Below are positions 9,236-63,638 of a stretch of 64,000 bases of DNA, piece after piece. This stretch comes from Squalus acanthias (taxonomy: Eukaryota). Each line of letters starts with the position of its first letter. The first letter of the stretch is position 1. A program made the translations under genes and the position numbers. The notes beneath the pieces are model-generated. The model saw only the letters and a program-made list of their open reading frames with translations, did no database searches and had not been told where the DNA came from. The stretch is from NCBI GenBank assembly GCA_030390025.1, contig CM059432.1:40364001-40428000 (forward strand). Direction: 5' to 3'.

Positions 9236-9440
9236 AGTAATGTAGTAATAGTTAAATAAAAATGAGAAGAGGAAATAGGGGAAGGTCAAGGAGTGAAGTT
9301 TGTCCTGTAAATTATTTGCATTCTAAGAATATGCGGGATACTTTCACATACCAAATGGACACGCCACCATATTCACAACATTTATTAGGTAGATATATAA
9401 ATGGCGTTCGTTCTATATCGTGTCAGTACTATTTTGTAAG

Positions 9441-11180
9441 AACTTAAGAATTAGGAACAGGAGTGGGCCATACAGCCCTTCGAGCCTGCTCTGCCATTCA
9501 ATAAGATCATGGCTGATCTTCGACCTCAACTCCACTTTCCCACCCGATCCCCATATCCCTTGATTCCTCGAGTCCAAAAATCTATCTCAGCCTTGAATAT
9601 ACTCAACGACTCAGAATCCACAGCCCTTTGGGGAAGAGAATTCCAAAGAGTCCCAACCCTCTGAGTGAAGAAAATTCCTCCTCATCTCAGTCTTAAATGG
9701 CCGACCCCTTGTCCTGAGACTATGTCCCCTAGTTCTAGACTCTCCAGCCAGGGGAAACAACCTCTCAGCGAGAGGATTCGAGTACAGGAGCAAGGATGTC
9801 TTGCTGCAGTTGTACAAGGCCTTGGTGAGACCACACCTGGAGTATTGTGTGCAGTTTTGGTCGCCTTATCTGAGGAAGGATGTTCTTGCCATGGAGGGAG
9901 TGCAGTGAAGATTCACCAGACTGATACCTGGGATGGCAGGAATGACATATGAAGAGAGATTGGGTCGATTAGGCTTATATTCGCTAGAGTTTAGAAGAAT
10001 GAGAGGGGATCTCATTGAAACTTATAAAATTCTAACAGGACTAGACAGACTAGATGCAGGAAGGATGTTCCCGATGGCCGGGGAGTCCAGAACCAGAGGT
10101 CACAGTCTAAGGATAAGGGGTAAGCCATTTAGGACAGAGATGAGGAGGAATTTCTTCACCCAGAGAGTGGTGAACCTGTGGAATTCTCTACCACAGAAGG
10201 CAGTTGAGGCCAATTCATTAAATATATTCAAGAAGGAGATAGATATATTTCTTAAGGCTAAAGGGATCAAGGGATATGGGGAGAAAGCAGGGACAGGGTA
10301 CTGAATTTGAATGATCAGCCATGATCTCATTAAATGGCGGAGCAGGCTCGAGGGGCCGAATGGCCTACTCCTGCTCCTATCTTCTATGCTTCTATACCCT
10401 GTCAATTCCCCCTCTGAATCTTACATGTTTCAATGAGGTCACCTCTCATTCTTCTAAACTCCAGAGTACAAGCCCAATCTACTCAATCTCTCCTCATAGG
10501 ACAATCTTCTCATTCCAGGGAACAATCTAGTGAACCTTCGATGCACTGCCTCTAAGGCATGTATGTCCTTTCTCGGTTAAGGAGACCAAAATTGTGCTCA
10601 GTACACCAGGTGTGGTCTCACCAAAGCCCTGTACAATTGTAGCAAGACTTCCTTACTCTTATACTCCAACCCCCTTGCAATAAAGGCCACCATGCAATTT
10701 GCCTTCCTAATTGCTTGCTGTTCCTGCATGCTAATTTTGTGTTTCCTGTACGAGGACACCTAAATCTCTCTGAACACCAAAATTTAATAGTTTCTCACAA
10801 TTTAAAAAATATTCTGTTTTTCTCTTCGTCCTACCAATGTGAATAAACTCACATTTCTCCACATTAAATGCTGCCACCTTATTGCCCACTCACTTAACCT
10901 GTCTATATCCCTTTGCAGGCTCTTTGTGTCCTTTTCACAGCTTACTTTTCCACCTAGCTTTGTATCGTCAGCAAACTTGGATACATTGCACTCGGTCCCT
11001 TCATCTAAGTCATTAATATAGATTGTAATTAGCTGAGGCCCAAGCACTGATTCTTGTCACACCCCACTAGTTACAGCCTGCCAACCGGAAAATGACCCGT
11101 TTATCCCTAATCTGTTTTTTGTCCGTTAACCAATCCTCTATCCATATATTACCCCCAACCCCATGAGCCCTTATCTTGCG
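9441..11180 (-). mobile_element. CR1 LINE fragment, interrupted by an opposite-strand CR1
   Basis: RT motif LGPQL...SKFADDTKL (ORF 10802..11047); 3' end at ~9445. Confidence 0.85.
9769..10392 (+). mobile_element. CR1 LINE 3' fragment nested in the above
   Basis: ORF 9933..10304 (YEERL..LGLYSLE.RR.RGDLIE). Confidence 0.85.
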
Positions 11181-23126: not shown

Positions 23127-24569
23127 TGAAGGGATAATTACAAGTCCTAGCCCTTTTCGGGCTACCCCAGATCAGGCGTATTCCCCAGACGTTCACCTTC
23201 AACTGAAGTTAGCGGTAGCCGAATCCTAGAGACGCTTAATTGGGTCTAAAGGTTCAGACTATCGCTCCCTAAAGGAAAGGAACGGCCTGAAGATGTTACC
23301 GTCCTCCGGATAGCACTTTTAACAAATTTAACTAGACTGTAACCTTCCGGCTATTATGAGGGTCCGGAAACCCCCCCAGAATTCTGCAACTCCTCACTGA
23401 AGAGTGTACAGAAATTGAGGTCGCGAGATTGATACAGAAATACTCTGAGACAATTTTAAAAATATATAGATTTATTAAAGAACCGACATCTAGTTAACAG
23501 CTGGTATGGCAATTGCAACTTTAACCGTTCAAAATACAAATAGCTTACATTTCTTATCAGAGATCCTTATTCTCAAATCTTAACTTCGTTACATTTCCAC
23601 ACTTCTACTTATTTCTTAATCCAGAATATCCACTAAAATCAAATACCTTGATTACCCAAGACTCAGAGTTAAAAACTTAGAGCGTGCCTGTGAAGTTGAG
23701 AAACGCTTGCCCTTCCAGCGACTTCTGACTCTCTATCTGAAAAGCTCTTACTTTTATACTCTTTTTTAGTGGTATATTCTTTGAAGTTTTCTTTTGATGT
23801 AAGCTAATTGTCTCTAGTGATACTCTATTGAATTCTTTTCTATTCTTACTGTCATTTCAGCTGCCAACTTTTAGAATTCTGTCTCTACCTTTAGGTGTTC
23901 ATATCTTCTCATAAAATATGGTATAACAGATTTATCTATTTGATGCCATTCTTAGGAAGTCTTTCTATTGAATTCTTAATATCACTTAACTGCTTGTAAG
24001 CCAGACGTCGTGACTCCGTGGTGTTCCAAGTTCAATACAAACACAATGTAATTGCTTGGTGTCATCTATTGATATTATATTTTCAAAGCCTCTCTGTAGG
24101 TATATTTTACAACTTGTAAATTGGAAACATTTCTCTTAGGGTGTTTACTTGTTTTCTTGCTATCTCAATTGGTTGCATATTTAATCGTGTTTCCTGTCTT
24201 ATTTGATGTTACTTTATGAAGGCATATGGTTGTTTAATGTTCTAAGTTTCTGTTTCCGAGTGTTAGCTTATAACACTTTACTTGGGTCATTCCATTGTGT
24301 TTCTCCCAAACTCCAGACCTTCTGGAAGCACCAATGGTTTGCTTCAATAGGGGCATTGTTTTTGTGTTTACAACCATCTCCCATTTCAAAGCTTGTGGTG
24401 TTTTACAGCTTTTGTTAACACTTCACCTCATCTCAGAAGTCTGTATTGTGTTTGCAGCCTGTGTCGCCGAGGCTTTCCAGACTTTTAAACTCAGTATGTC
24501 ATGTATTAATATTATCAAAATCTGTTCATAGGATGATGTATTTCTTGGAATATGGCTTTTTCCATTACA
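23127..24569 (-). mobile_element. Solo LTR (~1.44 kb) of an LTR retrotransposon or ERV
   Basis: TG...CA termini, 4-bp TSD ATCT (23123-26, 24570-73); minus-strand TATAAAAG at ~23755 and AATAAA at ~23473; the empty site is visible in the duplicate at ~25730-25745. Confidence 0.8.
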
Positions 24570-24630
24570 ATCTGTTGCTTCACTAACTGTAAATGGGAAT
24601 ACTATTTCATTATTCTGATGTGGGTGGATC

Positions 24631-25642
24631 CTCTGTCGTCGAATTACAGTACAGACGACGCTTGCGTCTGCGCTCACTCGGAGGTCGAACTCCAAACCAT
24701 CGACAACACCTTCACCGAAGCGTATGAGAGCATGGGCCTTACACTAAACATCCGTAAGACAAAGGTCCTCTACCAACCTGCCCCCGCCACACAGTACTGC
24801 CCCCCGATTATCAAAATCCACGACAAGGCCTTGGACAACGTGGACCACTTTCCATACCTCGAGAGCCTACTGTCAACAAGGGCAGACATCGATGACGAAG
24901 TTCAACACCGCCTTCAGTGTGCCAGTGCAGCCTTCGGTCGCCTGAGGAAGAGAGTGTTTGAAGACCAGGACCTCAAACCCGGCACTAAGCTCATGATCTA
25001 CAGAGCAGCAGTGATACCCGCCCTGCTGTATGCCTCAGAGACATGGACCATGTACAGCAGTCACCTCAAAGCACTGGAGAGGTACCACCAACGCTGCCTC
25101 CACAAGATCCTGCAAATCCATTGGCAGGATAGGCGCACCAACGTCAGTGTTCTCGCTCAGGCCAACATCCCCAGCATCGAAGCTTTGACCACGCTCGATC
25201 AGCTCCGATGGACGGGTCACATCGTCTGCATGCCCGATACGAGACTCCCAAAACAAGCGCTCTACTCGAAGCTCCGGCACAGCAATAGAGTCCCAGGTGG
25301 GCAGAGGAAACGCTTCAAGGACACCCTCAAAGCCTCCTTGAAAAAGTGCAACATCTCCACCGACACCTTGGAATCCCTGGCCCAAGACCGCACAAAGTGG
25401 AGGAGAAGCATCCGGGAAGGCGCCGAACACCTTGAGTCTCTTCGCCGGGAGCAAGCGGAAGCCAAGCGCAAGCAGCGCACGTCAACCCAAGCACCCCACC
25501 CACCCACCCACCCCTTCAACCACCGTCTGCCCCACCTGTGACAGAGACTGTAGGTCCCGCATTGGACTCATCAGTCACCTGAGAACTCATGTTTAATGTG
25601 GAAGCAAGTCATCCTCGGTTCCGAGGGACTGTCTAAGAAAAG
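24631..25642 (+). mobile_element. 5'-truncated RTE-clade LINE (RT C-terminal half and 3' end)
   Basis: ORF 24552..25541 with GLTLNIRKTKV, FPYLES, LLYASETW, RWTGHIV, RLPKQ..Y, GGQRKRFKD motifs; flanked by a ~153-bp direct repeat. Confidence 0.88.
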
Positions 25643-25815
25643 ACTCTCCACCTCACCCAAAACCATGTGATCTCCTGGGAGCAGCAAAAAAACAGATAAA
25701 AACCCAGGCCAATTTGGGAGGAAAAATCTGGGAAATTTGTTGCTTCACTAACTGTAAATGGGAATACTATTTCATTATTCTGATGTGGGTGGTTCAAAAG
25801 ATGCAACACAGTCTT

Positions 25816-25983
25816 GGTTTAACTAGTGGGACCAATCTGTTGTAGTTTGGTTTAACCAGTGGGAGCAACCTGTTGTAGTTTGGTTTAACCAGTGGGACCA
25901 ATCTGTTGTAGTTTGGTTTAACCAGTGGGACCAATCTGTTGTAGTTTGGTTTAACCAGTGGGACCAATCTGTTGTAGTTTGGT
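25816..25983 (+). repeat. 33-bp minisatellite x5 (GGTTTAACCAGTGGGACCAATCTGTTGTAGTTT)
   Basis: Five head-to-tail units, no spacers. Confidence 0.95.
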
Positions 25984-26420
25984 GTAATCTGGGAAATTCC
26001 TCTTCAACCTAGCTTAGTGATCGAAACTAGTCCAGGAGATCACTCTGGCCCTGAATTCCCTACCATTTGCAGGAGGATAAAGGGCCAATCCCCATAATGC
26101 AGTCCAAGATTGAATTGAGCAACATAGAAGAAAAAGCAAGTTGTTTAGCTGGGTAATGTCAACCTTGAGTTTTAAAAGCATATAGATCACAGGAAGGAGG
26201 GAGAACTGAAATGTGAATCTTTTCTATTCTCTAAGAATACTTCAAAACACAAAAAAGCTACAACTTTGACATTTTATCTTCACAAATTTAATTTTCTTCA
26301 CCAAAAGGTAGCTTTTGACTGAAGTACTGTTCCAAGAAAGAATACAAGCTTTAAGAATATTTTAATATTGACTCAACAGTAGCTTTTCAAAACAAAAAGT
26401 AGCACAGATGGGAAACTTAC

Positions 26421-44572: not shown

Positions 44573-45038
44573 ATCAGCCGTGGCTCAGTGGGAGGCACTC
44601 TCGCCTCCGAGTCAGAAGGTTGTGGGTTCAAGTCCCACTCCAGAGACTTGGGCACGAAAATCTAGGCTGACACTCCAGTGCAGTACTCAGGGAGTGCTGC
44701 ACTGTCGGAGGTGCCGTCTTTCAGATGAGACGTTAAACAGAGTCTGCTCTCTCAGGTGGGTGTAAAAAATCCCATGGCACTATTTCGAAGAAGAGCAGGG
44801 GAGCTATTCCCGGTGTCCTGGCCAATATTTATCCTCAATCAACATCACTTAAAAAAAAAAATTATCTGGTCATTATCACATTGTTGTTTGTGGGAGCTTG
44901 CTGTGCACAAATTGGCTGCCGCGTTTCCTACATTACAACAGTGACTACACTTCAAAAGTACTTCATTGGCTGTAAAGCGCTTTGGGACGTCCTGAGGTCG
45001 TGAAAGGCGCTATATAAATGCAAATCTCTTTCTTTCTT
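44573..45038 (+). mobile_element. Full-length tRNA-derived SINE with Deu-type core and L2-like tail
   Basis: A box TGGCTCAGTGG, B box GGTTCAAGTCC, tail ...ctttgggacgtcctgaggtcgtgaaaggcgctatataaatgca; several copies in window. Confidence 0.8.
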
Positions 45039-47761: not shown

Positions 47762-48000
47762 ACCCTACCACAGACCGTCCCTTTTGTTCTTTCCTCCCCT
47801 CCCCCACTTTCCCTGCCTCTGTACCTGCTTAAAATCTGTTACATCTCAAACTTTTTCCAGTTCTGATGAAGGGTCACGGATCTGAAATGTTAACTCTGTT
47901 TTTCTCTCTCCACGGATGCTGCCTGACCTGCTAAGTATTTCCAGCATTTTCTGTTGTTATTTCAGATTTCCAGCTTCCGCAGTATTTTGTTATTTTATTA
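47762..48000 (+). mobile_element. Penelope-like pseudo-LTR / non-autonomous fragment
   Basis: Hammerhead motif followed by ctctctccacggatgctgcctgacctgct...ttccagca, similar to 54680-54770 of the PLE 3' region. Confidence 0.65.
47859..47895 (+). ncRNA. Minimal hammerhead ribozyme motif in a solo PLE pseudo-LTR fragment
   Basis: AGTT-CTGATGA-A-GGGTC-acg-GATCT-GAAA-TGTT-AACT; stems I and II pair (with G-U). Confidence 0.7.
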
Positions 48001-48101
48001 ATTATGGATGGTGTTGGGGAAAGATGACAAACTGATGGTATATATTTGATACAAACATTAGAAGATTATTGCATGTATGTAAATTTGCAAAAAAGTTATT
48101 G

Positions 48102-49966
48102 AACATAGACATAGAAAAATAGGAGGAGTAGGCCATTCGGCCCTTTGAGCCTGCTCCACCATTCAATATGATCATGGCTGATCCTCTATCTCAATACCAT
48201 ATTCCCACTCTCTCCCCCCACACCCCTCGATGCCTTTTATGTCTAGAAATCTATCTATCTCCTTCTTAAATATATTCAGTGACTTGGCCTCCACAGCCTT
48301 CTGTGGTAGAGAATTCCACAGGTTCACCACCCTCTGAGTGAAGAAATTTCTCATCTCAGTCCTAAATGTCCTACCCCGTCTACTGAGATCGTTCTAGACG
48401 CCCCAGCCAGGGGAAACATCCTCCCTGCATCCAGTCTGTCTAGCCCTGTCAGAATTTTATACGTTTCATGGAGATCCCCTCTCATTCTTCTAACTCTAGT
48501 GAATACAGGCCTAGTGGACCCAATCTCTCCTCATACGACAGTCCTGCCATCCCAGGAATCAATCTGGTGAACCTTCGCTGCACTCACTCTGTGGCAAGTA
48601 TATCCTTTCTTAGGTAAGGAGACCAAAACTGCATAAAGTACTCCAGGTGTGGTCTCACCAAGGCCCTGTACAACTGTAGTAAGACATCCTTGCTCCTGTA
48701 CTCAAATCCTCTTGCAATGAAGGCCAACATACCATTTGCCTTCCTAATTGCTTGCTGCACCTGCATGTTTGCTTTCAGTGACTGGTGTACAAGGACACCC
48801 AGGTCCCTCTGTACATCAACATTTCCCAATCTACACCATTTAAATAATACTCTGCCTTTCTGTTTTTCCTACCAAAGTGGATAACTTCACATTTATCCAT
48901 GTTATACTGCATCTGCCATGTGTTTGCCCACTCATTCAACTTGTCTAAATCGCCTTGAAGCCTCTTTGCATCCTCCTCACAACCCCACCTAGTTTTGTGT
49001 CGTCAGCAAACTTGGAAATATTACATTTGGTTCCTTCATCCAAATCATTGATATATATTGTGAATAGCTGGGGCCCAAGCACTGATCTCTGCGGTACCCC
49101 ACTAGTCACCGCCTGCCACCCCGAAAAAGACCCATTTATTCCTACTCTCTGTTTCCTGTCTGTTAACCAATTTTCAATCCATGCCAGTATATGACCCCCA
49201 ATCCCATGTGCTTTAATTTTGCACACTAACCTCTTATGTGGGACTTTATCAAAGGCCTTCTGAAAATCCAAATACACCACATCCACTGGTTCTCCCTTAT
49301 CTATTCGACCAGTTATATCCTCAAAAAACTCCAGTAGGTTTGTCAAACACGATTTCCCTTTCATAAATCCATGTTGACTTTGTCTAATCCCGTTGATATT
49401 TTCTAAGTGTCCTGTTATCACATCCTTTATAATAGACTCTAGCATTTTCCCTACTACTGATGTTAGGCTAACCGATCTGTAGTTCCCTGTTTTCTCTCTC
49501 CCTCCTTTTTTAAATAGTGGGGTTACATTTGCCACCCTCCAATCTGCAGGAACTGTTCCATAATCTATAGAATTTTGGAAGATGACAACCAATGCATCCA
49601 CTATTTCCATGGCTACCTCTTTTAGTACTCTGGGATGCAGATTATCAGGCCCTGGGGATTTATTGGCTCAGTCCCATTAATTTCTCCAGCACTATTTTTT
49701 TACTAATACTAATTTCCTTTAATTCCTCCTTCTCACTAGACCCTTGGTTCCCTAGCATTTCTGGGAAGTTATTTGTGTCCTCTTCCATGAAGACAGAACC
49801 AAGGTATTTGTTTAATTGCTCTGCCATTTCCTTGTTCTCCATTATAAATTCTCCTGTTTCTGACTGTAAGCGACCTACATTTGTCTTCACTAATCTTTTT
49901 CTTTTTACATTCTTGTAGAAGCTTTTGCAATCCGCTTTTATGTTCCTTGCAAGTTTACTCTCATAC
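48102..49966 (-). mobile_element. CR1 LINE, RT and 3' end
   Basis: ORF 48945..49610 with the RT motif set. Confidence 0.92.
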
Positions 49967-50213
49967 CCATAGTTATGAAGTTTGATAACTAATATTTTAT
50001 ATTTTTACACTTTATAAATTAATAGCAAGGTCTTGATTTCTAGATTTATTGGGTGAGATTTACATGCTGCATTAGCCTGCAAAAAAGGCTTTTGTTTGGT
50101 AATGTACTTCACAGAACGGAATTGTAACAAACAAAGAACACAGCAACACCCTGGTTAGAGATGTGTGAGAAGTCGCACAACACCAGGTTATAGTCCAACA
50201 GCTTTATTTGAAA

Positions 50214-50250
50214 TCACAAGCTTTCAGAGCGCTGCTCCTTCGTCAGGTGA
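50214..50250 (-). ncRNA. Minimal type I hammerhead ribozyme, mirror copy in the minus-strand arm
   Basis: Reverse complement reads TCAC-CTGACGA-A-GGAGC-agc-GCTCT-GAAA-GCTT-GTGA. Confidence 0.8.
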
Positions 50251-50582
50251 AATGAAGAGATGCATATAGGCACCGCATATATAGTCAGAGAACACTGCCA
50301 GATGATTACAGTTAATCTTTCTAACTGCCCTTTATCACACCTCGGCAGAGAGATAATCACAGCAATCAAAGGTGTGGATGGTGTCCAAACAGGTCAGTCA
50401 GGAAAACATTACATCAAAGACAATGAGGTGGGGTCACAAGGGGTCAATTGTGGCAGATGCTGGGGTCTGTATGGAAAACAAAAAACTGTTTTTGCTGGAA
50501 ATCACAGCAGATCCGGCCGCATCTGTGTAGAGAGAACAAGCCAACGACGACTCGAGTCTGGATGACTCTACGTCAGGTGGAG

Positions 50583-52814
50583 TTACATGTAGCGTGACAT
50601 GAACCCAAGATCCCGGTTGAGGCCGTCCTCATGGGTGCGGAACTTGGCTATCAGTTTCTGCTCGACGATTTTGCGTTGTCGTGTGTCTCGAAGGCCGCCT
50701 TGGAGAACGCTTACCCGAAGATCGGAGGCTGAATGTCCTTGACTGCTGAAGTGTTCCCCGACTGGGAGGGAACACTCCTGCCTGGCGATTGTTGCGCGGT
50801 GTCCGTTCATACGTTGTCACAGTGTCTGCATGGTCTCGCCGATGTACCATGCATCCTTTCCTGCAACGTATGAGGTAGACAACGTTGGCCGAGTCACATG
50901 AGTATGTACCATGTACCTGGTGGGTAGTGTCCTCACGTGTGATGATGGTATCTGTGTTGATGATCTGGCATGTCTTGCAGAGGTTGCCGTGGCAGGGTTG
51001 TGTGGTGTCGTGGTCGCTGTTCTCCTGAAAGCTGGGTAATTTGCTGCAAACGATGATCTGTTTGAGGTTAGGCGGCTGTTTGAAGGCGAGTAGTGGAGGC
51101 GTGGGGATGGCCTTAGCGAGGTGTTTGTCGTCATCGATGACATGTTGAAGGCTGCGAAGAACATGGCGTAGTTTCTCCGCTCCGGGGAAGTACTGGACGA
51201 CGTAGGGTACTCTGTTGGTTGTGTCCCGTGTTCGTCTTCTGAGGAGGTCTATGCGATTTTTCGCTGTGGCCTGTCGGAACTGTCGATCGACGAATCGAGC
51301 GTCATATCCCGTTCTTACGAGGGCGTCTTTCAGCGTCTGTAGGTGTCCATTGCGTTCCTCCTCGTCTGAGCAGATCCTGTGTTTTCGCAGGGCTTGTCCA
51401 TAGGGGATGGCTTCTTTAACGTGGTTAGGGTGGAAGCTGGAGAAGTGGAGCATCGTGAGGTTGTCCGTGGGCTTGCGGTAGAGTGAAGTGCTGAGGTGTC
51501 CGTCTTTGATGGAGATTCGTGTGTCCAAGAATGAAACCGATTCTGAGGAGTAGTCCATGGTGAGTTTGATGGTGGGATGGAACTTGTTGATGTTATCGTG
51601 TAGTCTTTTCAGTGATTCTTCGCCATGGGTCCATAGGAAGAAAATGTCGTCGATGTATCTGGTGTATAGCGTTGGTTGGAGGTCCTGTGCAGCGAAGAAG
51701 TCTTGCTCGAACTTGTGCATGAAGAGGTTGGCGTATTGGGTTGCGAATTTGGTCCCCATGGCTGTTCCGTGTGTTTGGGTAAAAAACTGGTTGTCGAAGG
51801 TGAAGAAATTGTGGTCAAGGATGAAGCAGATGAGTTGTAGGATGGCGTCTGGAGATTGGCTGTTGTTGGTGTTGAGTACTGAGGCTGTCGCAGCGATGCC
51901 GTCATCGTGGGGGATACTGGTGTAGAGTGCCGAGACGTCCATCGTGGCGAGGAGTGTTCCTGGTTCAACCGGTCCGTGGGTGCTGAGTTTCTGTAAGAAG
52001 TCTGTAGTGTCGCGACAGAAGCTGGGGGTTCCCTGTACGATGGGTTTCAGGATGCCCTCGACGTATCCAGAGAGGTTCTCACACAGGGTTCCGTTGCCTG
52101 ATACGATAGGACGTCCGGGTGTGTTGGCTTTGTGTATCTTTGGGAGGCAGAAGTCTCCCACGCGGGGAGTATGTGGGATGAGAGCGCGTAGGATGCTTTG
52201 AACGTCTGGATCGAAGGTCTTGATCAGTCTATTGAGTTGGCGGGTGTGTTCTTTGGTCGGATCTGCGGGTAACTGTCTGTGGTGTTCCTGGTTGTCCAGT
52301 TGTCGGTATGCTTCTTTGCAATAGTCCATTCTGTTCTGTATGACGATGGCTCCTCCTTTGTCCGCTGGTTTGATGACGATGTTGCGGTTGGTCTTGAGAG
52401 CGTGGATGGCGTTGCATTGTGCTCGGGTGACATTCTGGACTATCTTGTGAGTGCGGCTCATGAATCTGGCATTGATGCATCTCCTGACAGCTTGAGCATA
52501 CATGTCAAGCTTAGGGCAGCGACCCTCCGGAGGGGTCCAATTTGACTCTTTCTTCTTCGGTTGCTGCACTGCGGGTCCCTCTGTCTGCTGTTCCGGATCA
52601 TTGATTGTCTCATTGGGTTCGCTGCTGACATCTTGGGATTCGTGGAAGAATTCCCGGAGCCTCATTCTCCTGATGAATTCCTCTGTGTCTGCCGCGAGAC
52701 CGATGGGGTCCATTTTGGTGGTGGGGCAGAAATTGAGCCCTCGGCTGAGAACTTCGATTTCGTCTGGTTGAAGGGTGTGGTCGGACAAGTTGACGATGGA
52801 CTTCCCTGTGGTTG
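50583..52814 (-). pseudogene. PLE RT/GIY-YIG ORF, minus-strand arm; 5'-truncated, frameshifted in the endonuclease (~50850)
   Basis: ORF 50629..52923 (genuine part ends at ~52814) plus 50583..50810; 8-nt deletion relative to the other arm. Confidence 0.9.
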
Positions 52815-54633
52815 CAACCGCAACATCGTCATCAAACCAGCGGACAAAGGAGGAGCCATCCTCATACAGAACAGAATGGACTATTGCAAAGAAGCATACC
52901 GACAACTGGACAACCAGGAACACTACAGACAGTTACCCGCAGATCCGACCAAAGAACACACCCACCAACTCAATAGACTGATCAAGACCTTCGATCCAGA
53001 CCTTCAAAGCATCCTACGTGCTCTCATCCCACGTACTCCCCGCGTGGGAGACTTCTACTGCCTCCCAAAGATACACAAAGCCAACACACCCGGACGTCCT
53101 ATCGTATCAGGCAACGGAACCCTGTGTGAGAACCTCTCTGGATACGTCGAGGGCATCCTGAAACCTATCGTACAGGGAACCCCCAGCTTCTGTCGCGACA
53201 CTACAGACTTCTTACAGAAACTCAGCACCCACGGACCGGTTGAACCAGGAACACTCCTCGCCACGATGGACGTCTCGGCACTCTACACCAGTATCCCCCA
53301 CGATGACGGCATCGCTGCGACAGCCTCAGTACTCAACACCAACAACAGCCAATCTCCAGACGCCATCCTACAACTCATCCGCTTCATCCTTGACCACAAT
53401 GTCTTCACCTTCGACAACCAGTTTTTTACCCAAACACACGGAACAACCATGGGGACCAAATTCGCAACCCAATACGCCAACATCTTCATGCACAAGTTCG
53501 AGCAAGACTTCTTCGCTGCACAGGACCTCCAACCAACGCTATACACCAGGTACATCGACGACATTTTCTTCCTATGGACCCACGGCGAAGAATCACTGAA
53601 AAGACTACACGATAACATCAACAAGTTCCATCCCACCATCAAACTCACCATGGACTACTCCTCAGAATCGGTTTCATTCTTGGACACACGAATCTCCATC
53701 AAAGACGGACACCTCAGCACTTCACTCTACCGCAAGCCCACGGACAACCTCACGATGCTCCACTTCTCCAGCTTCCATCCTAACCACGTTAAAGAAGTCA
53801 TCCCCTATGGACAAGCCCTGCGAATACACAGGATCTGCTCAGACGAGGAGGAACGCGATGGACACCTACAGACGCTGAAAGACGCCCTCGTAAGAACGGG
53901 ATATGACGCTCGACTCGTCGATCGACAGTTCCGACGGGCCACAGCGAAAAATCGCATAGATCTCCTCAGAAGACAAACACGGGACACAACCAACAGAGTA
54001 CCCTACGTCGTCCAGTACTTCCCCGGAGCGGAGAAACTACGCCATGTTCTTCGCAGCCTTCAACATGTCATCGATGACGACGAACACCTCGCTAAGGCCA
54101 TCCCCACGCCTCCACTACTCGCCTTCAAACAGCCGCCTAACCTCAAACAGACCATCGTTCGCAGCAAATTACCCAGCTTTCAGGAGAACAGCAACCACGA
54201 CACCACACAACCCTGCCACGGCAACCTCTGCTAGACATGCCAGATCATCAACACAGATACCATCATCACACGTGAGGACACCACCCACCAGGTACATGGT
54301 ACATACTCATGTGACTCGGCCAACGTTGTCTACTTCATACGTTGCAGGAAAGGATGCCCCGGAGCATGGTACATCGGCGAGACCATGCAGACACTGCGAC
54401 AACGTATGAACGGACACCGCGCAACAATCACCAGGCAGGAGTGTTCCCTCCCAGTCGGGGAACACTTCAGCCGTCAAGGACATTCAGCCTCCGATCTTCA
54501 GGTAAGCGTTCTCCAAGGCGGCCTTCGAGACACACGACAACGCAAAATTGTCGAGCAGAAACTGATAGCCAAGTTCCGCACCCATGAGGACGGCCTCAAC
54601 CGGGATCTTGGGTTCATGTCACGCTACATGTAA
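52815..54633 (+). pseudogene. PLE RT/GIY-YIG ORF, plus-strand arm; 5'-truncated, nonsense codon at 54232-54234
   Basis: ORFs 52561..54234 and 54385..54633 are in the same frame; TAG where the other arm has AAG. Confidence 0.9.
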
Positions 54634-54965
54634 CCCCACCTGACGTAGAGTCATCCAGACTCGAGTCGTCGTTGGCTTGTTCTCTCTACACAGATGCGGC
54701 CGGACCTGCTGTGATTTCCAGCAAAAACAGTTTTTTGTTTTCCATACAGACCCCAGCATCTGCCACAATTGACCCCTTGTGACCCCACCTCATTGTCTTT
54801 GATGTAATGTTTTCCTGACTGACCTGTTTGGACACCATCCACACCTTTGATTGCCGTGATTATCTCTCTGCCGAGGTGTGATAAAGGGCAGTTAGAAAGA
54901 TTAACTGTAATCATCTGGCAGTGTTCTCTGACTATATATGCGGTGCCTATATGCATCTCTTCACT

Positions 54966-55002
54966 TCACCTGATGAAGGAGCAGCGCTCCGAAAGCTTGT
55001 GA
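54966..55002 (+). ncRNA. Minimal type I hammerhead ribozyme in PLE 3' pseudo-LTR
   Basis: TCAC-CTGATGA-A-GGAGC-agc-GCTCC-GAAA-GCTT-GTGA: core boxes, stem II, stem I (TCAC/GTGA), palindromic AAGCTT helix III; AATAAA follows at 55008. Confidence 0.82.
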
Positions 55003-55990
55003 TTTCAAATAAAGCTGTTGGACTATAACCTGGTGTGCGACTTCTCACATTTGTCCACCCCAGTCCAACACCGGCATCTCCACATCATGGTTAGAGATGG
55101 GCATAGCTTAGGTGGAATTCATTTCCACCTAGAAATTAATTATAAGGTGTCATGATTATTAAAATTTGAAACTTCAAAATCTGTCTTTAGGACATCCTGA
55201 AATTACAGTCTAGATTTCAGTAACCGTGTGCTTGGTATTTATTTATTACGGATGATCAGTACTGATTGTATTGTAGTGCTCTTCTCTTGTGCTTTCTGTG
55301 ACTTAAATCAATATCTACAAATTTAAAATATCAAGCCTGTATGACGATATGCAATGAAGTTCTAAATCAGGACATAAGAACATAAGAAATAGGAGCAGGA
55401 GTAGGCCATTTGGCCCTTCGAGCCTGCTCCTCCATTCAATAAGATCATGGCTGATCTTGTACCTCATCTCCACTTTCCTGCACTATCCCCATATCCCTTG
55501 ATTCCCTTAATATTCAAAAATCTAGCGATCTGTCTTGAATATACTCAACGACTGAGCCTCCACAGCTCTCTGGGGTAGAGAATTACAAAGATTCACCACC
55601 CTCTGAGTGAAGAAATTTCTCCTCATCTTAGTCCTAAATGGCCGACTCCTTATTCGGAGACTGTGACCCCTGATTCCACACTCCCCAGCCAGGGGATACA
55701 TCCTCCCTGCATCTATCCTGTCAAGCCCTGTAACGATTTTGTATGTTTCAATGAGATCACCTCTCATTCTTCTAAACTTTAGAGAATATAGGCCTAGTCT
55801 CTCCTCATAGGACAATCCCCCCCATCCCAGGAACCAGTCTGGTGAACGTTCGTTGCACTCCCTCTATGGCAAGTATATCCTTCCTTAGGTAAGGAGACCA
55901 AAACTGTACACAATACTCCAGGTGTGGTCTCACCAGAGCTCTATATAATTGCAGTAAGATGTCTTTACTCTTATACTCAAATCTTCTTGT

Positions 55991-58900
55991 AATAAGAAAT
56001 AGGAGCAGGAATAGACCAGTTGGCCCCTCGAGCCTGCTCCGCCATTCAATAAGATCATGGCTGATCTTGGGCTCAAAGCCACTTCCCTGCCCGCTCCCCA
56101 TAACCCTTCACTCCTTTATCTTGCAAAAATCTGTCTATCTCCACCTTAAATGTATTTAATGACCCAGCCTCCACAGCTCTCTGCGGCAGAGAATTCCACA
56201 GATTTACGACCCTCAGAGAAGAAATTCCTCCTCATCTCAGTTCTAAAAGGGCGACCCTTTATTCTGAAACTATGCCCCCGAGTTCTAGATTTCCCCACGA
56301 GGGGAAACATCCTCTCTGCATCTACCTTGTCGAGCCCCCTCAGTATCTTATATGTTTCAATAAGATCACCTCTCATTCTTCTAAATTCCAATGAGTATAG
56401 GCCCAACCTGCTCAACCTTTCCTCATAAGTCAACCCCCTCATCTCTGGAATTAATATACAGGAAACTCTCGTTTAAACGGCACCTAAATATCCGGAATTC
56501 TCTAATAACCGGCAGAATTCATACTCCGAAAACTACAGTATACAGTCGTTTATAAGTTTTGTTTTACCGTTAAGTAATTAAAGAGTTATGGATTACCCTC
56601 AACTGGCATTACTGTACTTAATCAAGCTTCTTCCACCATCCATTTAACACAGCATTCTGTAGGGGAGTACCCAATTATACTGCACATTTCTTGATTTTTT
56701 TTATTTTTGTTTGTTAAAAATAGCCTCGGTAGATATACCTCTCCGTTATCCGGAATTTTTAATCAACCGGCACCATCCCGGTCCCGTCGGTGCCGGATAC
56801 GAAAGAGTTTCCTGTAGAATCGTCTCTGAAGTGCCTCCAATGCAAGTATATCCTTCCTTAAATAAGGAGACCAAAACTGTACGCAGTACTCAAGGTGTGG
56901 TCTCACCAATACCCTGTACAGTTGTAGCAGGACTTCCCTGCTTTTATACTCCAACCCCCTTGAAATAAAGGCCAACATTCCATTTGCCTTTTTGATTACT
57001 TGCTGTACCTGCATGCTAAGTTTTTGTGTTTCATGCACAAGGACCCCTAGGTCCCTCTGAACTGTAGCATTTTGTAATCTCTCTCCATTAAAATAATAAT
57101 TTGCTTTTTTATTTTTCCTGCCAAAGTGGATAACCTCGCACTTTCCCACATTATACTCCATCTTCCAAATGTTTGCCCACTCACTTAGCCTGTCTATATC
57201 CCTTTGCAGATTCTGAGTCCTCTGCACAACTTGCTTTCCCACCCATCTTTGTATCATCCGCAAACTTGGCTACATTATACTCGATCCCTTCATCCAAGTC
57301 ATTAATGTAGATTGTAAATAGTTGAGGCCCCAGCACCGATCCCCGTGGCACCCCACTAGTTACCGTTTGCCAACCAGAAAACGACCCATTTATCCCGACT
57401 CTCTGCTTTCTGTTAGTTAGCCAATTCTCTATCCATGCTGATATATTACCCCCAATTCCGTGAGCTCTTATCTTATGCAGTAACCTTTTATGTGGCACCT
57501 TATCGAATGCCTTCTGAAATCCAAATACACCACATCCACTGGCTCACCTTTGTCCACCCTGCTCATGACATCCTCAAAGAACTCCAGCAAATTTGTTAAA
57601 CATGATTTTCCTTTCATGAAACCATGCTGACTCTGCTTGACTGCATTATGATTTTCCAAATGCCCTGCTACTGCTTCCTTAATGAAGGACTCCAGCATTT
57701 TCCCAACGACAGATGTTAGGCTAACTGGTCTATAGTTTCCTGCTTTCTTAAATAGGGGTGTTACATTTGCGGTTTTCCAATCCGCTGGGACCTCTCCAGA
57801 GTCCAGGGAATTTTGGTATATTGCAACCAATTCATCCACAATCTCTGCAGCCACTTCTTTTAAGACCCTGGGATGCAGGCCATCTGGTCCAGGGGACTTG
57901 TCATCTTTTAGTCCCATTATTTTACCAAGTACTATTTCCTTAGTGATAGTCTTTAGTTTCCCCTTCCCTGTGGCCCCTTGATTATCCATTATTGGGATGT
58001 TGTTAGTGTCTTCTACCGTGAAGACAGATACAAAATATTTGTTCAGAGTCTCTGCCATTTCCCCGTTCCCCATTATTAATTCCCCAGTCTCATCCTCTAA
58101 GGGACCAACGTTTACTTTAGCTACTCTCTTCCTTTTTATATACCTGTAGAAGCTCTTACTATCTGTTTTAATATTTCTTGCCAGTTTACTCTCATAAATT
58201 CATCTTCTCTATTTTTTTTTGGTTTTTAAAAATTTCCCAATCCTCTGGTCTCCCACCAATCTTGGCAACATTGTATGCCTTCGTTTTCAATTTGATACCA
58301 TCCTTTACTTCCTTAGTTAGCCACGGATGGTGCTCCCTTCTCTTAAAATCTTTCTTTCTCACTGGAATATATTTTTGTTGAGAGTTATGAAATTTTTCTT
58401 TAATTGTCTTACCCTTTCATTTATTTTTCCAGTCCACTTTAGCCAGTTCTGCCCTCATGCCATTGTAATTGCCTTTGTTTAAGGTCAGGACACTGGTTTG
58501 AGATACAACTTTCTCACCCTCCAACTGAATTTGAAATTCAACCATGCTGTGATCACTCTTTCCTAGAGGATCCTTTACTATGAGATCATTTATTAATTCT
58601 GTCTCATTACACAGTACAAGATCCAAGATAGCCTGCTCCCTGGTTGGTTCCATTACATACTGTTCTAGGAAACCATCCCGGATGCACTCTACGAACTCCT
58701 CCTCAAGGCTACCATGGCCAATTTGATTTGTCCAATCAATATGCAGATTAAAATCACCCATGATTATTACCGTACCTTTTTTACAGGGCTCCATTATTTG
58801 TTGATTTATACTCTGTCCAACAGTATTGCTACTGCTCGGGGGCCTGTAGACTACGCCCACCAGAGACTTTTTCCCCTTATTATTTTTTATCTCCACCCAA

Positions 58901-59356
58901 ATCGATTCTACATCTTGATCTTCTGAGCCTATATCGCTTCTCACCATTGCACTGATCCCATCCTTTACCAACAAAGCTACCCCACCTCCCTTTCCTTTCT
59001 GTCTATCCTTCCGAATTGTCAAATACCCTGGAATATTCAGTTCCTAGCCCAGGTCACCTTGCAACCACGTCTCTGTAATGGTGATCAGATCATACTCATT
59101 TGTGTCTATTTGTGCCGTCAACTCATCTATCTTGTTACAAATGCTGCGTGCATTCAGATATAGAGTTTTTAACTTTGTCTTTTTACCATTTCTCCTTGTT
59201 TTGGCCCCATTTTCTGTTGCACTCTTATTTTTAAACATTCTGTCCCTTCCTGTCACACTCTGGTTATTATTTCCCCCCTCTCTATCCTGCTCTATTGGTA
59301 TCTCATTTCTCATTGACTTTTTAAAGTCCCGCTCACCTGGACCCTCCCCCCCCACT
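55991..59356 (-). mobile_element. CR1 LINE with nearly complete, frameshifted ORF2 (APE endonuclease + RT)
   Basis: YLNARSI, ITETWL, GVVYRPP, MGDFN, ILDLVL, SDH, then RT motifs. Confidence 0.92.
56459..56814. mobile_element. Tc1/mariner (pogo/Tigger-like) MITE inserted in a CR1
   Basis: TIR CAGGAAACTCT/AGAGTTTCCTG with TA on both sides. Confidence 0.8.
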
Positions 59357-60169
59357 ATAAAGGCCAACATACCATTTGCTTTCCTAATTGCTTGCTGTAC
59401 CTACATGTGAACTTTCAGTGCTTCATGTACAAGGACACCCAGGTCCTTCTGAACACCAACATTTCCCAATCTCTCACCATTTAAAAAATACTCTGCTTTT
59501 CTATTTTTCCTACCGAAGTGGATAACTTCACATTTCTCCACATTATATTCCATTTGCCATGTTCTTGCCCACTCACTTAGCCTGTCTATATCCCCTTGAA
59601 GCCTCCTTGCATCCTCCTCACAACTTACATTCCCACCCAGCTTTGTATCATCAGCAAACTTGGATATATTACATTTGGTCCCCTCATCCAAATCATTGAT
59701 GTAGATTGTGAATAGCTGAGGCCCAAGCACTGATCCTTGCGGTACCCCACTAGTTACAGCCTGCCAACCCGAAAATGACCCTTTTATTCCTATTCTCTGT
59801 TTTCTGTCCGTTAACCAATCCTCAATCCATGCTGGTATATTACCCCCAATCCCATGAACCCTAATTTCGTTTAATAACCTCTTGTGTGGCACCTTATCGA
59901 ATGCCTTCTGAAAATCCAAATACACCACATCCACTGGTTCCCGTTTTTTTTATTCTGCTAATTACAACCTCAAAAAACTCCAACAGATTTGTCAAACATG
60001 ATTTCCCTTTCATAAATCCGTGTTGACTCTGCCCAATCCTATTATTATTTTCTAAGTGCCCTGTTACCACGTCCTTAATATTAAGCACGTGGTAACATTT
60101 ATCTTTTACTGAGTGTTGTTGAACAATCAACCCCAAATTAATTGTTTTAGTTGTTCCCTCATTTAAATG

Positions 60170-61100: not shown

Positions 61101-62356
61101 TCCTGTACTTTTTTTTTTATTCTGGAAGGATTCCCTGTTATTTACAAAGACAACATTAAACATAAATAACGAAACATACGGCCTGCGGAACAATTTCATC
61201 CGACCTACAGTGTGACGTGCTCAGGATTGGCAAATCTCCCTTGGCGCTACTTCCAACAGTCACTCACTCTGTGATGTCAGCCCCACCCTCCCCATCCCCC
61301 CTGATGGCACAGAGAGCTAGCACTCGCTTTGGGCTGACCAGAAATGGGACCAGCTGGTGGGGGCGAAAGGTTTTGCTGGACTGGACTGGACGAGGGTGAC
61401 CAGAGACTAATTCTGTGGCCATATGTTTTGTGAAGAGTAAATATTCCAGTCTAACCAAATCTAGCTCTTAAAGTGGAAATGCATAGCTCATCACATCTTC
61501 CTTTGAGCTACTGAAATAAGGGGCTGGCAGCATGGTGCGAGTACAACAGTGTTATCTTTCCCACTTGAAGACGCTCTTTAAAACCTCTCTCTTTGACCAA
61601 GCTTTTGGTCATTTGTCCTAATAGCTCCTTATGTGGCTCGGTGTTCAATTTTGTTTGATAACTCTCCTGTGAAGTGCCTTGGGACGTTTTACTACGTTAA
61701 AGGCGCTATATAAATGAAAGTTGTTGTCGTAGAGGGCAGGAAATGAGGGATCGGGGAGAGAGGGAGACTAGCGAATGGAGTGCGGCAGGCATGGGGCACA
61801 GTATTTCCTGCAGAGTCTGGAGCAGCAGCAGTAACATGGTGAGTGGGAGCGGTGCCGAGAGTGGAGCAGCGCCGAGAGTGGAGCAGCCAGTAAAGGGATT
61901 TAGAGTGGGTAAATAGTCAAAGATTGTTTCTACTGGTGGGTGAATGGGGTGCTGCATGCCCTGATTTTACATTGCAAGCTCCAATACATGGAGGAGATGC
62001 AGGATGAACGAGTACAGGCTAGCTGTAGACCACAGAAGTGCTGTGGAGCTGGGAGGGGCACTCCTGCTCCTCTATGCTCCATAGAAGGGTTGTAAAAAAT
62101 ATTTTTCCTACCAGTTCTTCAGCAGCCTCCAGCAATCCCTTTAGGCTGCTGTAGAGCTGGCAAAACTAATCAGAGTTTGCATGGCACATGCGCCACTTAG
62201 TTTTCACGCATTTTGCAGAAGGCGCAGGACCCTTCTATACATATTTAAATTGATCCAATGCTGATTTGAGGTAGCCATCAGGTACGTCTAAAAACAGTGT
62301 GGACCAATATGGCAGCAGCGATTAGGCGCAGGACCACGTGCCCAGAAATTGGTGTA

Positions 62357-63638
62357 CATCATGGATTTGTGAAAGGTAGGTCATGCCTGACAAACCCGAT
62401 AGAATTTTTTGAGGAGGTGACTAAAGTAGTGGACAGGGGAATGTCTATGGATGTTATTTATATGAACTTCCAGAAGGCATTTGATAAAGTCCCACATAAG
62501 AGATTGTTATCTAAGGTAGAAGCCCACAGAATTGAGGGCAAATTATTGACCTGGTTAGGAAATTGGCTGAGCGGCAGGAGACAGAGAGTAGGGATAATGG
62601 GTAGGTACTCAAATTGGCAGGATGGGACTAGTGGTGTCCTGCAGGGATCTGTGTTGGGGCCTCAACTATTCACAATATTTATTAACGACTTAGATGATGG
62701 CATAGAAAGTCATATATCCAAATTTGCCGATGACACTAAGATAGGCGGCATTGTGGGCAGTGTAGATGAAAGCATAAAATTACAAAGGGATATTTGATGG
62801 ATTAAGTGAATGGGCAAAACTGTGGCAAATGGATTTCAATGTAAGCAAATGTGAGGTCATCCACTTTGGACCTAAAAAAGATAGAACAGGGTACTTTCTA
62901 AATGGTGAAAAGCTAAAAACAGTGGAGGTCCAAAGAGACTTGGGGGTTCAGGTCCATAGATCATTAAAATGTCATGAACAGGTAGAGAAAATAATTATAA
63001 AGGCTAATGGAATGCTGACCTTTATATCTAGAGGACTAGAGTACAAGGGGGTAGAAGTTATGCTGCAGGTATACAAAACCCTGGTTAGACCACTCCTGGA
63101 ATACTGTGAGCAGTTCTGGGCACCACACCTTAGGAAGGATATATTGGCCTTGGAGGGAGTGCAGTGTAGGTTTACCAGAATGATACCCAGAGGGTTAAGT
63201 TACAGTGAGAGATTACACAAATTAGGGTAGTATTCCCTAGAATTTAGAAGGTTAAGGGGTGATCTGATCGAAGTTTTCAGGATATTATGGGGAAAAAGAT
63301 AGGGTAGATAGAGAGAAACTATTTCTGCTGGTTGGGGAGTCTAGGACTAGCGGCATAGTCTAAAAATTAGAGCCAGACCTTTCAGGAGTGAAATTAGGAA
63401 ACACTTCTACACACAAAGGGTGGTAGAAGTTTGGAACTCTCTTCCGCAAACGGCAATTGGTGCTAGATCAATTGATAATTTTAAATTGGAGAGTGATAGT
63501 TTTTTTGTTAACCAAAGGTGTTAAGGGATATGGGCCAAAGGCGGGTATATGGAGTTAGATCACAGATCAGCCATGATCTCATTGAATGGCGGAACAGGCT
63601 CGAGAGGCTGAATGGCCTACTCCTGTTCCTATGTTCCT
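62357..63638 (+). mobile_element. CR1 LINE, RT and 3' end
   Basis: ORFs 62297..62797 and 62829..63230. Confidence 0.9.

Follow-up and report, generated by a model that had tools for sequence, protein, structure and literature searches.

Positions 50152..55099 of the window, by which we mean the whole 64,000-nucleotide stretch of Squalus acanthias DNA that was analysed, hold a real structure: two head-to-head, 5′-truncated copies of a Penelope-like element (PLE) within one 12-bp target-site duplication (TSD). The unit was very probably laid down in one event in which both of its ends were primed on RNA. Its parts are as follows:

50152..50163, + strand: left copy of the TSD, 12 bp, an exact match to 55088-55099
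50164..52820, − strand: left PLE copy, 5′-truncated, 2657 nt, with no tail, its 3′ end at RNA site 1
52385..52390, + strand: CGGTTG, the complement of the junction hexamer and the start of the right copy in element coordinates
52391..52814, − strand: unpaired part of the left copy, through which the ORF continues in alignment with full-length relatives and which family contigs cover
52810..52819, either strand: 10-bp palindrome GGTTGCAACC at the inverted junction; it belongs to the element's own sequence
52815..52820, either strand: 6-nt microhomology CAACCG, common to the 5′ ends of both copies
52815..55087, + strand: right PLE copy, 5′-truncated, 2273 nt with its tail, ending at RNA site 2
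55050..55087, + strand: 38-nt tail, at the right end only; family 3′ ends fall at 55087/55088
55088..55099, + strand: right copy of the TSD, host sequence; contigs of runs X15 and X19 start aligning exactly at 55088

The duplication, TGGTTAGAGATG, has no further copy on either strand of the 64-kb window, and the probability of such a 12-mer match by chance at a given place is about 6e-8; with an exact pair and only two copies in the window, the original prediction of one TSD around the whole unit is borne out. The inner junction lacks a TSD, the sole one surrounding the whole inverted unit. The first T of the right copy is ambiguous with the element's own end: in run X5, 55 contigs leave the element behind place 55088. 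The predicted one-sided tail is present at the right end, and no counterpart of 55050-55087 was found at the left end, where the copy stops at the equivalent of 55049 (RNA site 1). Because the left copy is tailless, an inverted duplication at the DNA level of a single older copy is rejected. Nor could the left copy have served as template for the tail, so priming of the right end took place on RNA.

Aligned as an inverted repeat, the arms (50164-52390 and 52815-55049) differ by 39 substitutions in 2224 aligned columns (98.2% identity) and by three indels of 3, 8 and 3 nt, in agreement with the near-identity first described. What had been taken for a 424-bp spacer between them (52391-52814) turns out to belong to the left copy, whose 5′ portion is the longer one, since the left reading frame and the family contigs run through it. 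The match of family contigs extends to 52820 in the left copy, a limit set from the loose ends of the family in run X1, and begins at 52815 in the right copy, giving a 6-nt overlap; the loose ends lie before 52815 in runs X1 and X5 and behind 52820 in X1. For a random pair of breakpoints, an overlap of this length has a probability of about 0.002. The junction hexamer has three partners within the left copy, however, so a 6-nt match would be easily found if ends were trimmed.

Independent sequencing supports the right end. In run X1, a 332-nt contig over 55065-55365 joins tail, TSD and flank with one other letter, while among the contigs listed none spans the left junction or the inner junction, and none in run X5 (about 55% of the run) crosses the right junction, an absence that carries no weight in either direction. 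In two relatives (X15 and X19), homology begins exactly at the TSD, with no element; the predicted empty site is thus seen as a flank free of the element, although the single 12-mer itself was not directly observed. Family read depth rises about 7-fold from the 5′ end of the arms to the terminus and stands five orders of magnitude above that of the flank, neither figure being a copy number. Besides a 48-nt, 83% match near 47900, the 64-kb window holds no second family copy, and no tRNA genes were found. The exact 22-nt terminal motif occurred in 0 stretches of the metagenome, viral and prokaryote collections, and of 36 pattern matches in metagenome contigs scanned at the protein level, 0 were confirmed as relatives. 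The target site itself resembles the element terminus with a score of 11, which 2.8% of 5000 random 30-mers reach; spotted after the fact, this likeness was set aside as weak evidence, as was an agreement over 6 nt between the tail and the primer end of the top strand, at a place other than the junction actually used.

Each copy retains a coding remnant:

50583..52820, − strand: left ORF remnant, with the end of the N-terminal region, the reverse transcriptase (RT), a CX4CxxC linker and GIY-YIG
52816..54633, + strand: right ORF remnant, with the DKG motif, RT (YIDD at 53551), linker and GIY-YIG with CCHH residues

PF00078 (RT) matches both copies with E about 1e-8, and the encoded proteins are colinear with full-length relatives across RT and nuclease, the left copy starting near residue 147 of an 881-aa relative. 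The match to PF01541 (GIY-YIG) is weak and covers the C-terminal part (E 9e-4, 20 bits, below the 22.6 cut-off), and a regular-expression scan for the nuclease motif gave 0 matches in the translation; by eye, the nuclease residues can be followed there as VVY..C...C....YIG and, later, R, H, H, E and N. The reading as two divergent, 5′-truncated RT + GIY-YIG copies holds. All junctions had been called intact, and they are, but both ORFs are broken, the left by an 8-nt deletion (frameshift) and a nonsense change, the right by a premature stop at 54232-54234 (nonsense change).

EN+ PLEs are defined by a CCHH motif, of which two cysteines lie between GIY and YIG, by DKG and by R/H/E/N (PMC8557442). 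Here the DKG motif lies at 52843, and 5′ truncation, absence of poly(A), a 38-nt tail within the 30-40-nt range and a TSD are further EN+ PLE traits. The cysteine linker of the left copy and its relatives, CHGNLCKTC, fits CX2-5CxxC, which occurs in Nematis too and is therefore not diagnostic of Neptune alone. Membership of the Penelope/Poseidon clade, recognised by the lack of a Cys-rich linker, was rejected, as the linker is present. Judged by these motifs, this is an EN+ Penelope-like element, probably of the Neptune type. In a 2026 preprint, vertebrate samples yielded Neptune and Poseidon only; sharks are not mentioned there.

Towards the RNA 3′ end, three further elements can be discerned:

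50214..50250, − strand: minimal hammerhead motif of the left copy, from a pattern scan, with two changes relative to the right copy
54966..55002, + strand: minimal type-I hammerhead motif of the right copy, from a pattern scan and motif anatomy
55014..55075, + strand: predicted RNA stem-loop, with site 1 (55049) in its AC-rich terminal loop (55042-55052)

The right motif has a stem I of TCAC/GTGA, a core of CTGATGA...GAA and a palindromic AGCT replacing stem III. Placed in the terminal repeat, this putative hammerhead fits the minimal PLE form of PMC4209133, sharing with the metazoan examples the short stem I, the extra unpaired base before stem II and a stem III reduced to a palindrome; in that study, motif pairs on opposite strands are 100-700 bp apart, versus 4.7 kb here. 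Rfam gave 0 matches up to E 5, hammerheads included. Site 2 (55087) lies 12 nt behind the base of the predicted stem-loop. Folding of 55010-55087 gave z −2.87, with 0/200 shuffles as good, a score that depends on the window chosen (other windows: z −1.9, −1.9, −0.9 and −0.3), and the left end, which has no tail, gave z +0.3.

After insertion, the arms decayed neutrally and evenly. The substitutions comprise 32 transitions and 7 transversions, CpG decay accounts for 10 on the left arm and 8 on the right, and 8 of the 33 coding differences are synonymous, against 10.1 expected under neutrality. At 14 listed arm positions, at least about 95% of the family depth (X1, X5) differs from the right arm; 11 of these are private to the right arm and three are common to both:

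53238, + strand: shared variant, left partner 51970; synonymous; the family majority lacks it
53467, + strand: shared variant, left partner 51741; replaces Pro by Thr in MGxxFAP, a conserved RT motif
54942, + strand: shared variant, left partner 50274; in the 3′ untranslated region

The shared variants number at least three, as the count is based on the 40 of 217 difference rows listed, of which the 14 are a non-random sample. In each of the four runs, letters other than that of the majority make up at most 0.32% at these positions, and in rarity the three variants equal the changes private to the right arm; transversions make up two of the three, against 7 of the 39 later changes (p ~0.09). 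As the family almost entirely lacks the three variants that the arms have in common, the arms derive from one donor. The rarity itself fits equally a low-output donor, gene conversion at a later stage or copying errors that fold-back doubled.

A single insertion event is thus supported by the lone TSD, with none inside, by the equal neutral decay of the arms and by the three shared private variants. Both ends of the unit fall at RNA positions that fit the two RT start sites of the Anolis element (PMC11167929). In the sequence of steps that we propose, a Neptune-type PLE would have integrated once in this shark's lineage, after its split from the two sequenced relatives. A 12-nt staggered cut with 3′ overhangs, as the TSD suggests, would have been the work of the GIY-YIG nuclease, probably acting as a dimer. 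Each 3′-OH would have primed a cDNA on RNA of a single donor locus: the top strand presumably within the loop of the terminal stem-loop (site 1), and the bottom strand 38 nt further 3′, at site 2. These cDNAs, of about 2.66 kb and 2.27 kb, would cover the same 2.2 kb of RNA, so that the template may have been one transcript with several units in tandem, a pair of transcripts from the same locus or a single RNA used twice. As in L1 twin priming, their 3′ ends could then anneal via the 6-nt microhomology at the native palindrome, each cDNA serving as template for the other's second strand. Both arms then decayed neutrally. We give this full version, twin priming with two long cDNAs, an even chance of being right. 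Of the both-strand priming originally put forward, the single event and the RNA-primed right end stand, whereas the choice between a second long cDNA and fold-back is left undecided by the sequence.

Fold-back is the main rival to twin priming, although we think it rather unlikely. It invokes a single long top-strand cDNA (2.66 kb), the 3′ CAACCG of which snaps onto CGGTTG 424 nt upstream and self-copies the right arm, while the bottom strand primes a short tail cDNA at site 2 that is joined by terminal homology. The same 6-nt overlap is predicted, the similar length of the two long arms is explained, and the variants common to the arms but missing from sister copies follow directly. The junction moreover lies on a palindrome, the basis of the self-priming proposed for PLEs (PMC3846280), and inverted duplications primed by self-annealed 3′ ends are found at L1-made breaks (10.1101/2024.12.14.628481). 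On its own, however, fold-back leaves unexplained a tail that the left copy lacks, and it would need an extra switch and the unwinding of a 2.2-kb hairpin, as the chromosome end would otherwise be sealed. A 7-nt fold-back partner at 52558, nearer and longer than the hexamer partner, was not used, which weakly favours two cDNAs. Two long cDNAs and fold-back plus a short tail cDNA nonetheless both predict the identical final sequence, and at one locus no sequence feature separates them.

Also improbable to us is a donor locus that was an inverted unit from the outset, or an antisense transcript that primed itself as proposed for rotifer PLEs, with one-ended priming at site 2 inserting the full 4.9 kb of RNA. 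Such an origin would yield one TSD, a one-sided tail and shared variants, and both antisense self-priming and two-way promoters have been proposed (PMC3846280); it would, however, take a coincidence for the left end to fall at site 1 in the terminal loop, and 2.2 kb of double-stranded RNA would make a poor template. Only 1 of the 11 polarised right-arm changes is A to G, hence no editing signature, and the evenly split arm differences look post-insertional. Closely spaced inverted repeats can undergo gene conversion, and two independent insertions at one site, or cDNAs of two donors, might later have been partly homogenised in this way. One shared variant does sit in a 214-nt difference-free stretch, but another lies in a stretch of just 36 nt between differences, where the mean spacing is 53 nt; a second TSD is absent, two 5′ ends overlap by 6 nt at the inner junction, and the synonymous excess expected between working lineages was not found, which makes this account very unlikely. 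An assembly fold-back artefact we regard as practically negligible. Long inverted repeats are known to trouble the assembly of PLEs (PMC8557442) and no listed contig covers the whole unit, but the 39 neutral, evenly split arm changes speak against one, as do the three indels, CpG decay on both arms, ends made different by the tail, the TSD at both outer ends and the X1 contig across tail, TSD and flank.

Inverted EN+ PLE insertions with an inverted copy, a one-sided tail and a TSD have already been published (PMC8557442, PMC3846280, PMC8969392), in line with the asymmetric 3′ extension named in the original prediction. In common with them, the unit has a 5′-truncated inverted copy joined at its 5′ end, inverted repeats flanking the whole, a tail (theirs 30-40 bp) of the kind often found at one end only, a TSD around the entire unit (8-10 bp in the rotifer cases, 12 bp here) and palindromes at the inverted junction. 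It differs in that both copies are 5′-truncated and coding, with no direct tandem pLTR, and in the 424-nt unpaired part and 6-nt overlap at the junction. The arms, said to be unusually long, measure 2.2 kb against about 0.2 kb in the rotifer inverted examples consulted; the rotifer paper also mentions long tandem/inverted structures, so that long arms have some precedent. In the accessible part of PMC12910113, nothing on inverted PLE structure was found.

The closest biochemical comparison is PAc, a Poseidon-clade element of Anolis carolinensis for which both target strands are cut and extended in vitro, the start site shows no strand difference, the tail is the sequence between two start sites and a dimer is predicted (PMC11167929). 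This evidence of two-site priming comes from another clade. The shark element shares with PAc an RT with C-terminal GIY-YIG, a minimal hammerhead, and candidate start sites that bracket the tail with a start in an AC-rich stem-loop, those of PAc having been shown in vitro. Unlike PAc, it has a CX4CxxC linker, which is missing in Poseidon, and its target here is not of the AT-rich ATT type that PAc favours. Most of the dimer surface predicted for PAc falls within an N-terminal region that these two copies do not have. The main text of PMC11167929 does not derive inverted insertions from both-strand priming. In L1 twin priming, as described in the available portion of 10.1101/2024.08.27.596794, both nicks prime cDNA and the ends join by micro-complementarity; an inverted product within one TSD and microhomology at the inversion junction are found here too. 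The second L1 primer, according to the same portion, anneals internally and the pieces tile the RNA, with a median internal duplication of 22 bp, whereas here the two starts, both at the RNA 3′ end, are within 38 nt of each other, 2.2 kb occurs in two copies and there is no poly(A). The mechanism works like twin priming, but not in its L1 form.

The locus adds no new kind of element, its architecture having been described for PLEs before. How tandem and inverted PLE insertions form was called undefined in a 2021 survey (PMC8557442), and the steps after priming were left unvalidated by the 2024 biochemistry (PMC11167929). Tentatively, and with more doubt than confidence, we suggest that inverted PLE insertions are a regular two-ended product in which both cut ends start on RNA of one donor at two fixed sites, the long arms being either two cDNAs of a tandem transcript or a self-copied first cDNA. 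This model was not found stated in the literature covered by the searches. One locus cannot decide between mechanisms. What it in all likelihood clearly records is that both cut chromosome ends started copying from the same donor. It is a well-bounded natural product, with one TSD, an empty flank in relatives and both ends at candidate start sites; together with the 6-nt junction overlap and the variants shared by the arms, these features make it usable as a test case and define a genome-wide test of twin priming against fold-back and a pre-formed donor, in a family very abundant in sharks. If the two-ended model is true, the private variants shared by the arms would record donor identity or copying errors in vivo, readable across the shark family.

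The 12-mer TGGTTAGAGATG occurs at 50152-50163 and 55088-55099, with no third copy on either strand of the window. Between the two lie an inverted repeat, 50164-52390 against 52815-55049 (39 substitutions per 2224 aligned columns, and three indels), and a 38-nt tail (55050-55087) without a counterpart at the left end of the unit; the coordinates of the original prediction for the 12-mers, the arm limits and the one-sided extension were all recovered. What it called a 424-bp spacer between the arms, 52391-52814, is instead coding: the left ORF continues across it, aligning there with full-length relatives, so the stretch belongs to the left copy, which reaches further in the 5' direction than the right one. 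At the left junction (50161-50167), an alternative reading has the primer pair with 3 nt of the RNA and then slip by 2 nt, and the sequence fits both. The target site (50134-50163) is similar to the element's terminus read in antisense, with a local score of 11, reached by 2.8% of random 30-mers; this weak, post hoc signal would fit a preference for the element's own repeat.

Contigs from four of 22 listed sequencing runs were aligned to 52391-55365, comprising the unpaired part, right arm and right flank. Because family contigs diverge from the window before 52815 (four in run X1, five in X5) and behind 52820 (four in X1), CAACCG at 52815-52820 must be common to the two copies; this overlap falls on a 10-bp palindrome that is part of the element's own sequence. 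Two random breakpoints would produce 6 nt of overlap with a probability of about 0.002, but under end trimming such a match is no rarity, since the hexamer has three partners inside the left copy.

Both copies are 5'-truncated, with disrupted ORFs, and encode reverse transcriptase (PF00078); the GIY-YIG region is a weak Pfam match below the cut-off. Among the best 120 of 2169 protein matches, the top ones are from sharks (91% identity for Heptranchias perlo), followed by turtle and invertebrate matches at ~35-50% identity, which makes a shark the most likely host. Alignment with relatives reveals the DKG motif, CX4CxxC linker and CCHH nuclease residues, which by the definitions in excerpts of PMC8557442 denote a Neptune- or Nematis-type Penelope-like element (PLE). 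Poseidon membership is excluded by the same motifs under those definitions. Judged by its sequence, the unit probably belongs to a Neptune-type shark PLE family. Each copy carries a minimal hammerhead motif, found by motif search:

54966-55002, plus strand, minimal hammerhead motif of the right copy
50214-50250, minus strand, minimal hammerhead motif of the left copy, in mirror image

Both agree with the minimal PLE hammerhead in the excerpted description of PMC4209133, which also describes paired PLE hammerheads on opposite strands; an Rfam search gave 0 matches. At 47863-47990 (plus strand), a second hammerhead-like core (CTGATGA...GAAA) precedes 48 nt that are 83% like the 3' region of this family; this is probably the terminus of a PLE from an older or distinct family.

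A 332-nt contig of X1, a run that possibly stems from the sample used for the assembly, spans 55065-55365 with one other letter, connecting tail, target-site duplication (TSD) and right flank. In X15 and X19, from two other organisms, one contig each aligns rightwards from exactly 55088, with unaligned letters beyond; this fits an empty site and identifies the 12-mer as host sequence. For the proposed check of an empty site in relatives, the evidence is this right-flank homology beginning exactly at 55088; a single 12-mer joined to the left flank would be the predicted arrangement there. These contigs carry 11 differences from the right flank over about 250 letters and 9 over about 280; this divergence, above the ~0.9% of each arm, is in line with insertion after the split.

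The arm differences comprise 32 transitions and 7 transversions, with 18 of the 39 at CpG (10 in the left arm, 8 in the right), and look like decay after insertion in arms of equal age. Coding changes (8/33 synonymous versus 10.1 expected) give no sign of two selected lineages as sources of the arms. Forty of 217 contig-versus-window difference rows were examined; in 14 of these, within the arm, ~95% or more of X1 and X5 depth has a letter unlike the right arm. The family letter is present in the left arm in 11, while in three (53238, 53467, 54942) a rare letter is common to both arms, the non-majority share there being <=0.32% in all four runs; therefore, the arms either share a single template or arose by copying of one arm into the other. 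X15 and X19 depart from the window almost entirely at six listed arm positions where X1 and X5 match it, which places the window copy in a lineage-specific subfamily.

A predicted stem-loop occupies 55014-55075 (z -2.87, 0/200 shuffles; weaker in other windows). The left end of the unit corresponds to 55049 (site 1), within its AC-rich loop, and the right end, 55087 (site 2), lies 12 nt behind the predicted stem. Site 2 is a family end, because 55 X5 contigs depart from the element behind 55088 into diverse flanks. Site 1 is less sharply defined and only a candidate fixed start base: the listed loose contig ends drift around 55050-55054, with four joints at 55055-55056. Four of 12 listed joints (X1, X15) link 55085-55088 via 6-15 foreign letters to 55055-55056 within the tail; such joints could mean that two insertions adjoin tail to tail at a common target site, or that there is another start position.

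The sequence itself shows one TSD, one template, arms of equal age, the junction overlap and a left copy without tail. In the excerpts of PMC11167929, an Anolis PLE, a predicted dimer, cuts and extends both strands and starts at two internal RNA sites bracketing the tail. Here, a cut staggered by 12 nt would leave two 3' ends that prime cDNA at sites 1 and 2, and the two cDNAs would meet at CAACCG, each templating the other's second strand, much as in the L1 twin priming outlined in 10.1101/2024.08.27.596794. Unlike in L1, 2.2 kb were copied twice, and the template must therefore have been a tandem transcript, a pair of RNAs from one locus, or a single RNA that was read again. We give this twin-priming model about an even chance. 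Fold-back, in which the cDNA copies itself into the second arm, is possible though doubtful: it predicts the same final sequence, accounts more simply for the rare shared variants and agrees with the self-priming idea excerpted from PMC3846280, but takes more steps and still requires RNA priming at the right end.

The predicted both-strand priming at two RNA positions is partly supported, in that the ends fit the two start sites of the Anolis element and the right end is RNA-primed; fold-back predicts the sequence equally well. A single event, as originally proposed, is favoured by one TSD, equal arm ages and one template, the alternative to the last being one arm copied from the other; independent insertions followed by gene conversion seem quite improbable, and a donor locus already inverted before insertion is unlikely. 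An assembly fold-back is hardly credible, and we reject it because the arm differences look like post-insertion decay, with CpG changes on both arms.

Other LINE fragments abound in the flanks; many of them, which we take to be CR1/L2-like, lie in both orientations (9437-10730, 48100-49965, 55372-60083, 62270-63187), and the unit lies between two of these stretches. A tandem array (25781-26020; 33-nt unit, ~6 copies) directly follows a 334-aa frame (24537-25541), presumably the end of an RTE-type LINE. Inverted 95-nt arms (1547-1641 and 2134-2228, 86%), 492 nt apart, could be a miniature inverted-repeat element; a related copy lies 42 kb off (2137-2247 against 44927-45037).

In the excerpted accounts, PLE insertions typically include a 5'-truncated copy in inverted orientation, have a tail on one side and are enclosed as a whole by a TSD (PMC8557442, PMC3846280, PMC8969392). 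No explicit twin-priming model of PLEs was found in the literature searched, PLE reviews of 2005-2006 lying beyond that scope. The unit is a real, well-preserved case of this known insertion form, its layout unsurprising to specialists; its private variants common to both arms, junction overlap and long arms suit it well as the starting point of a genome-wide test of mechanism.
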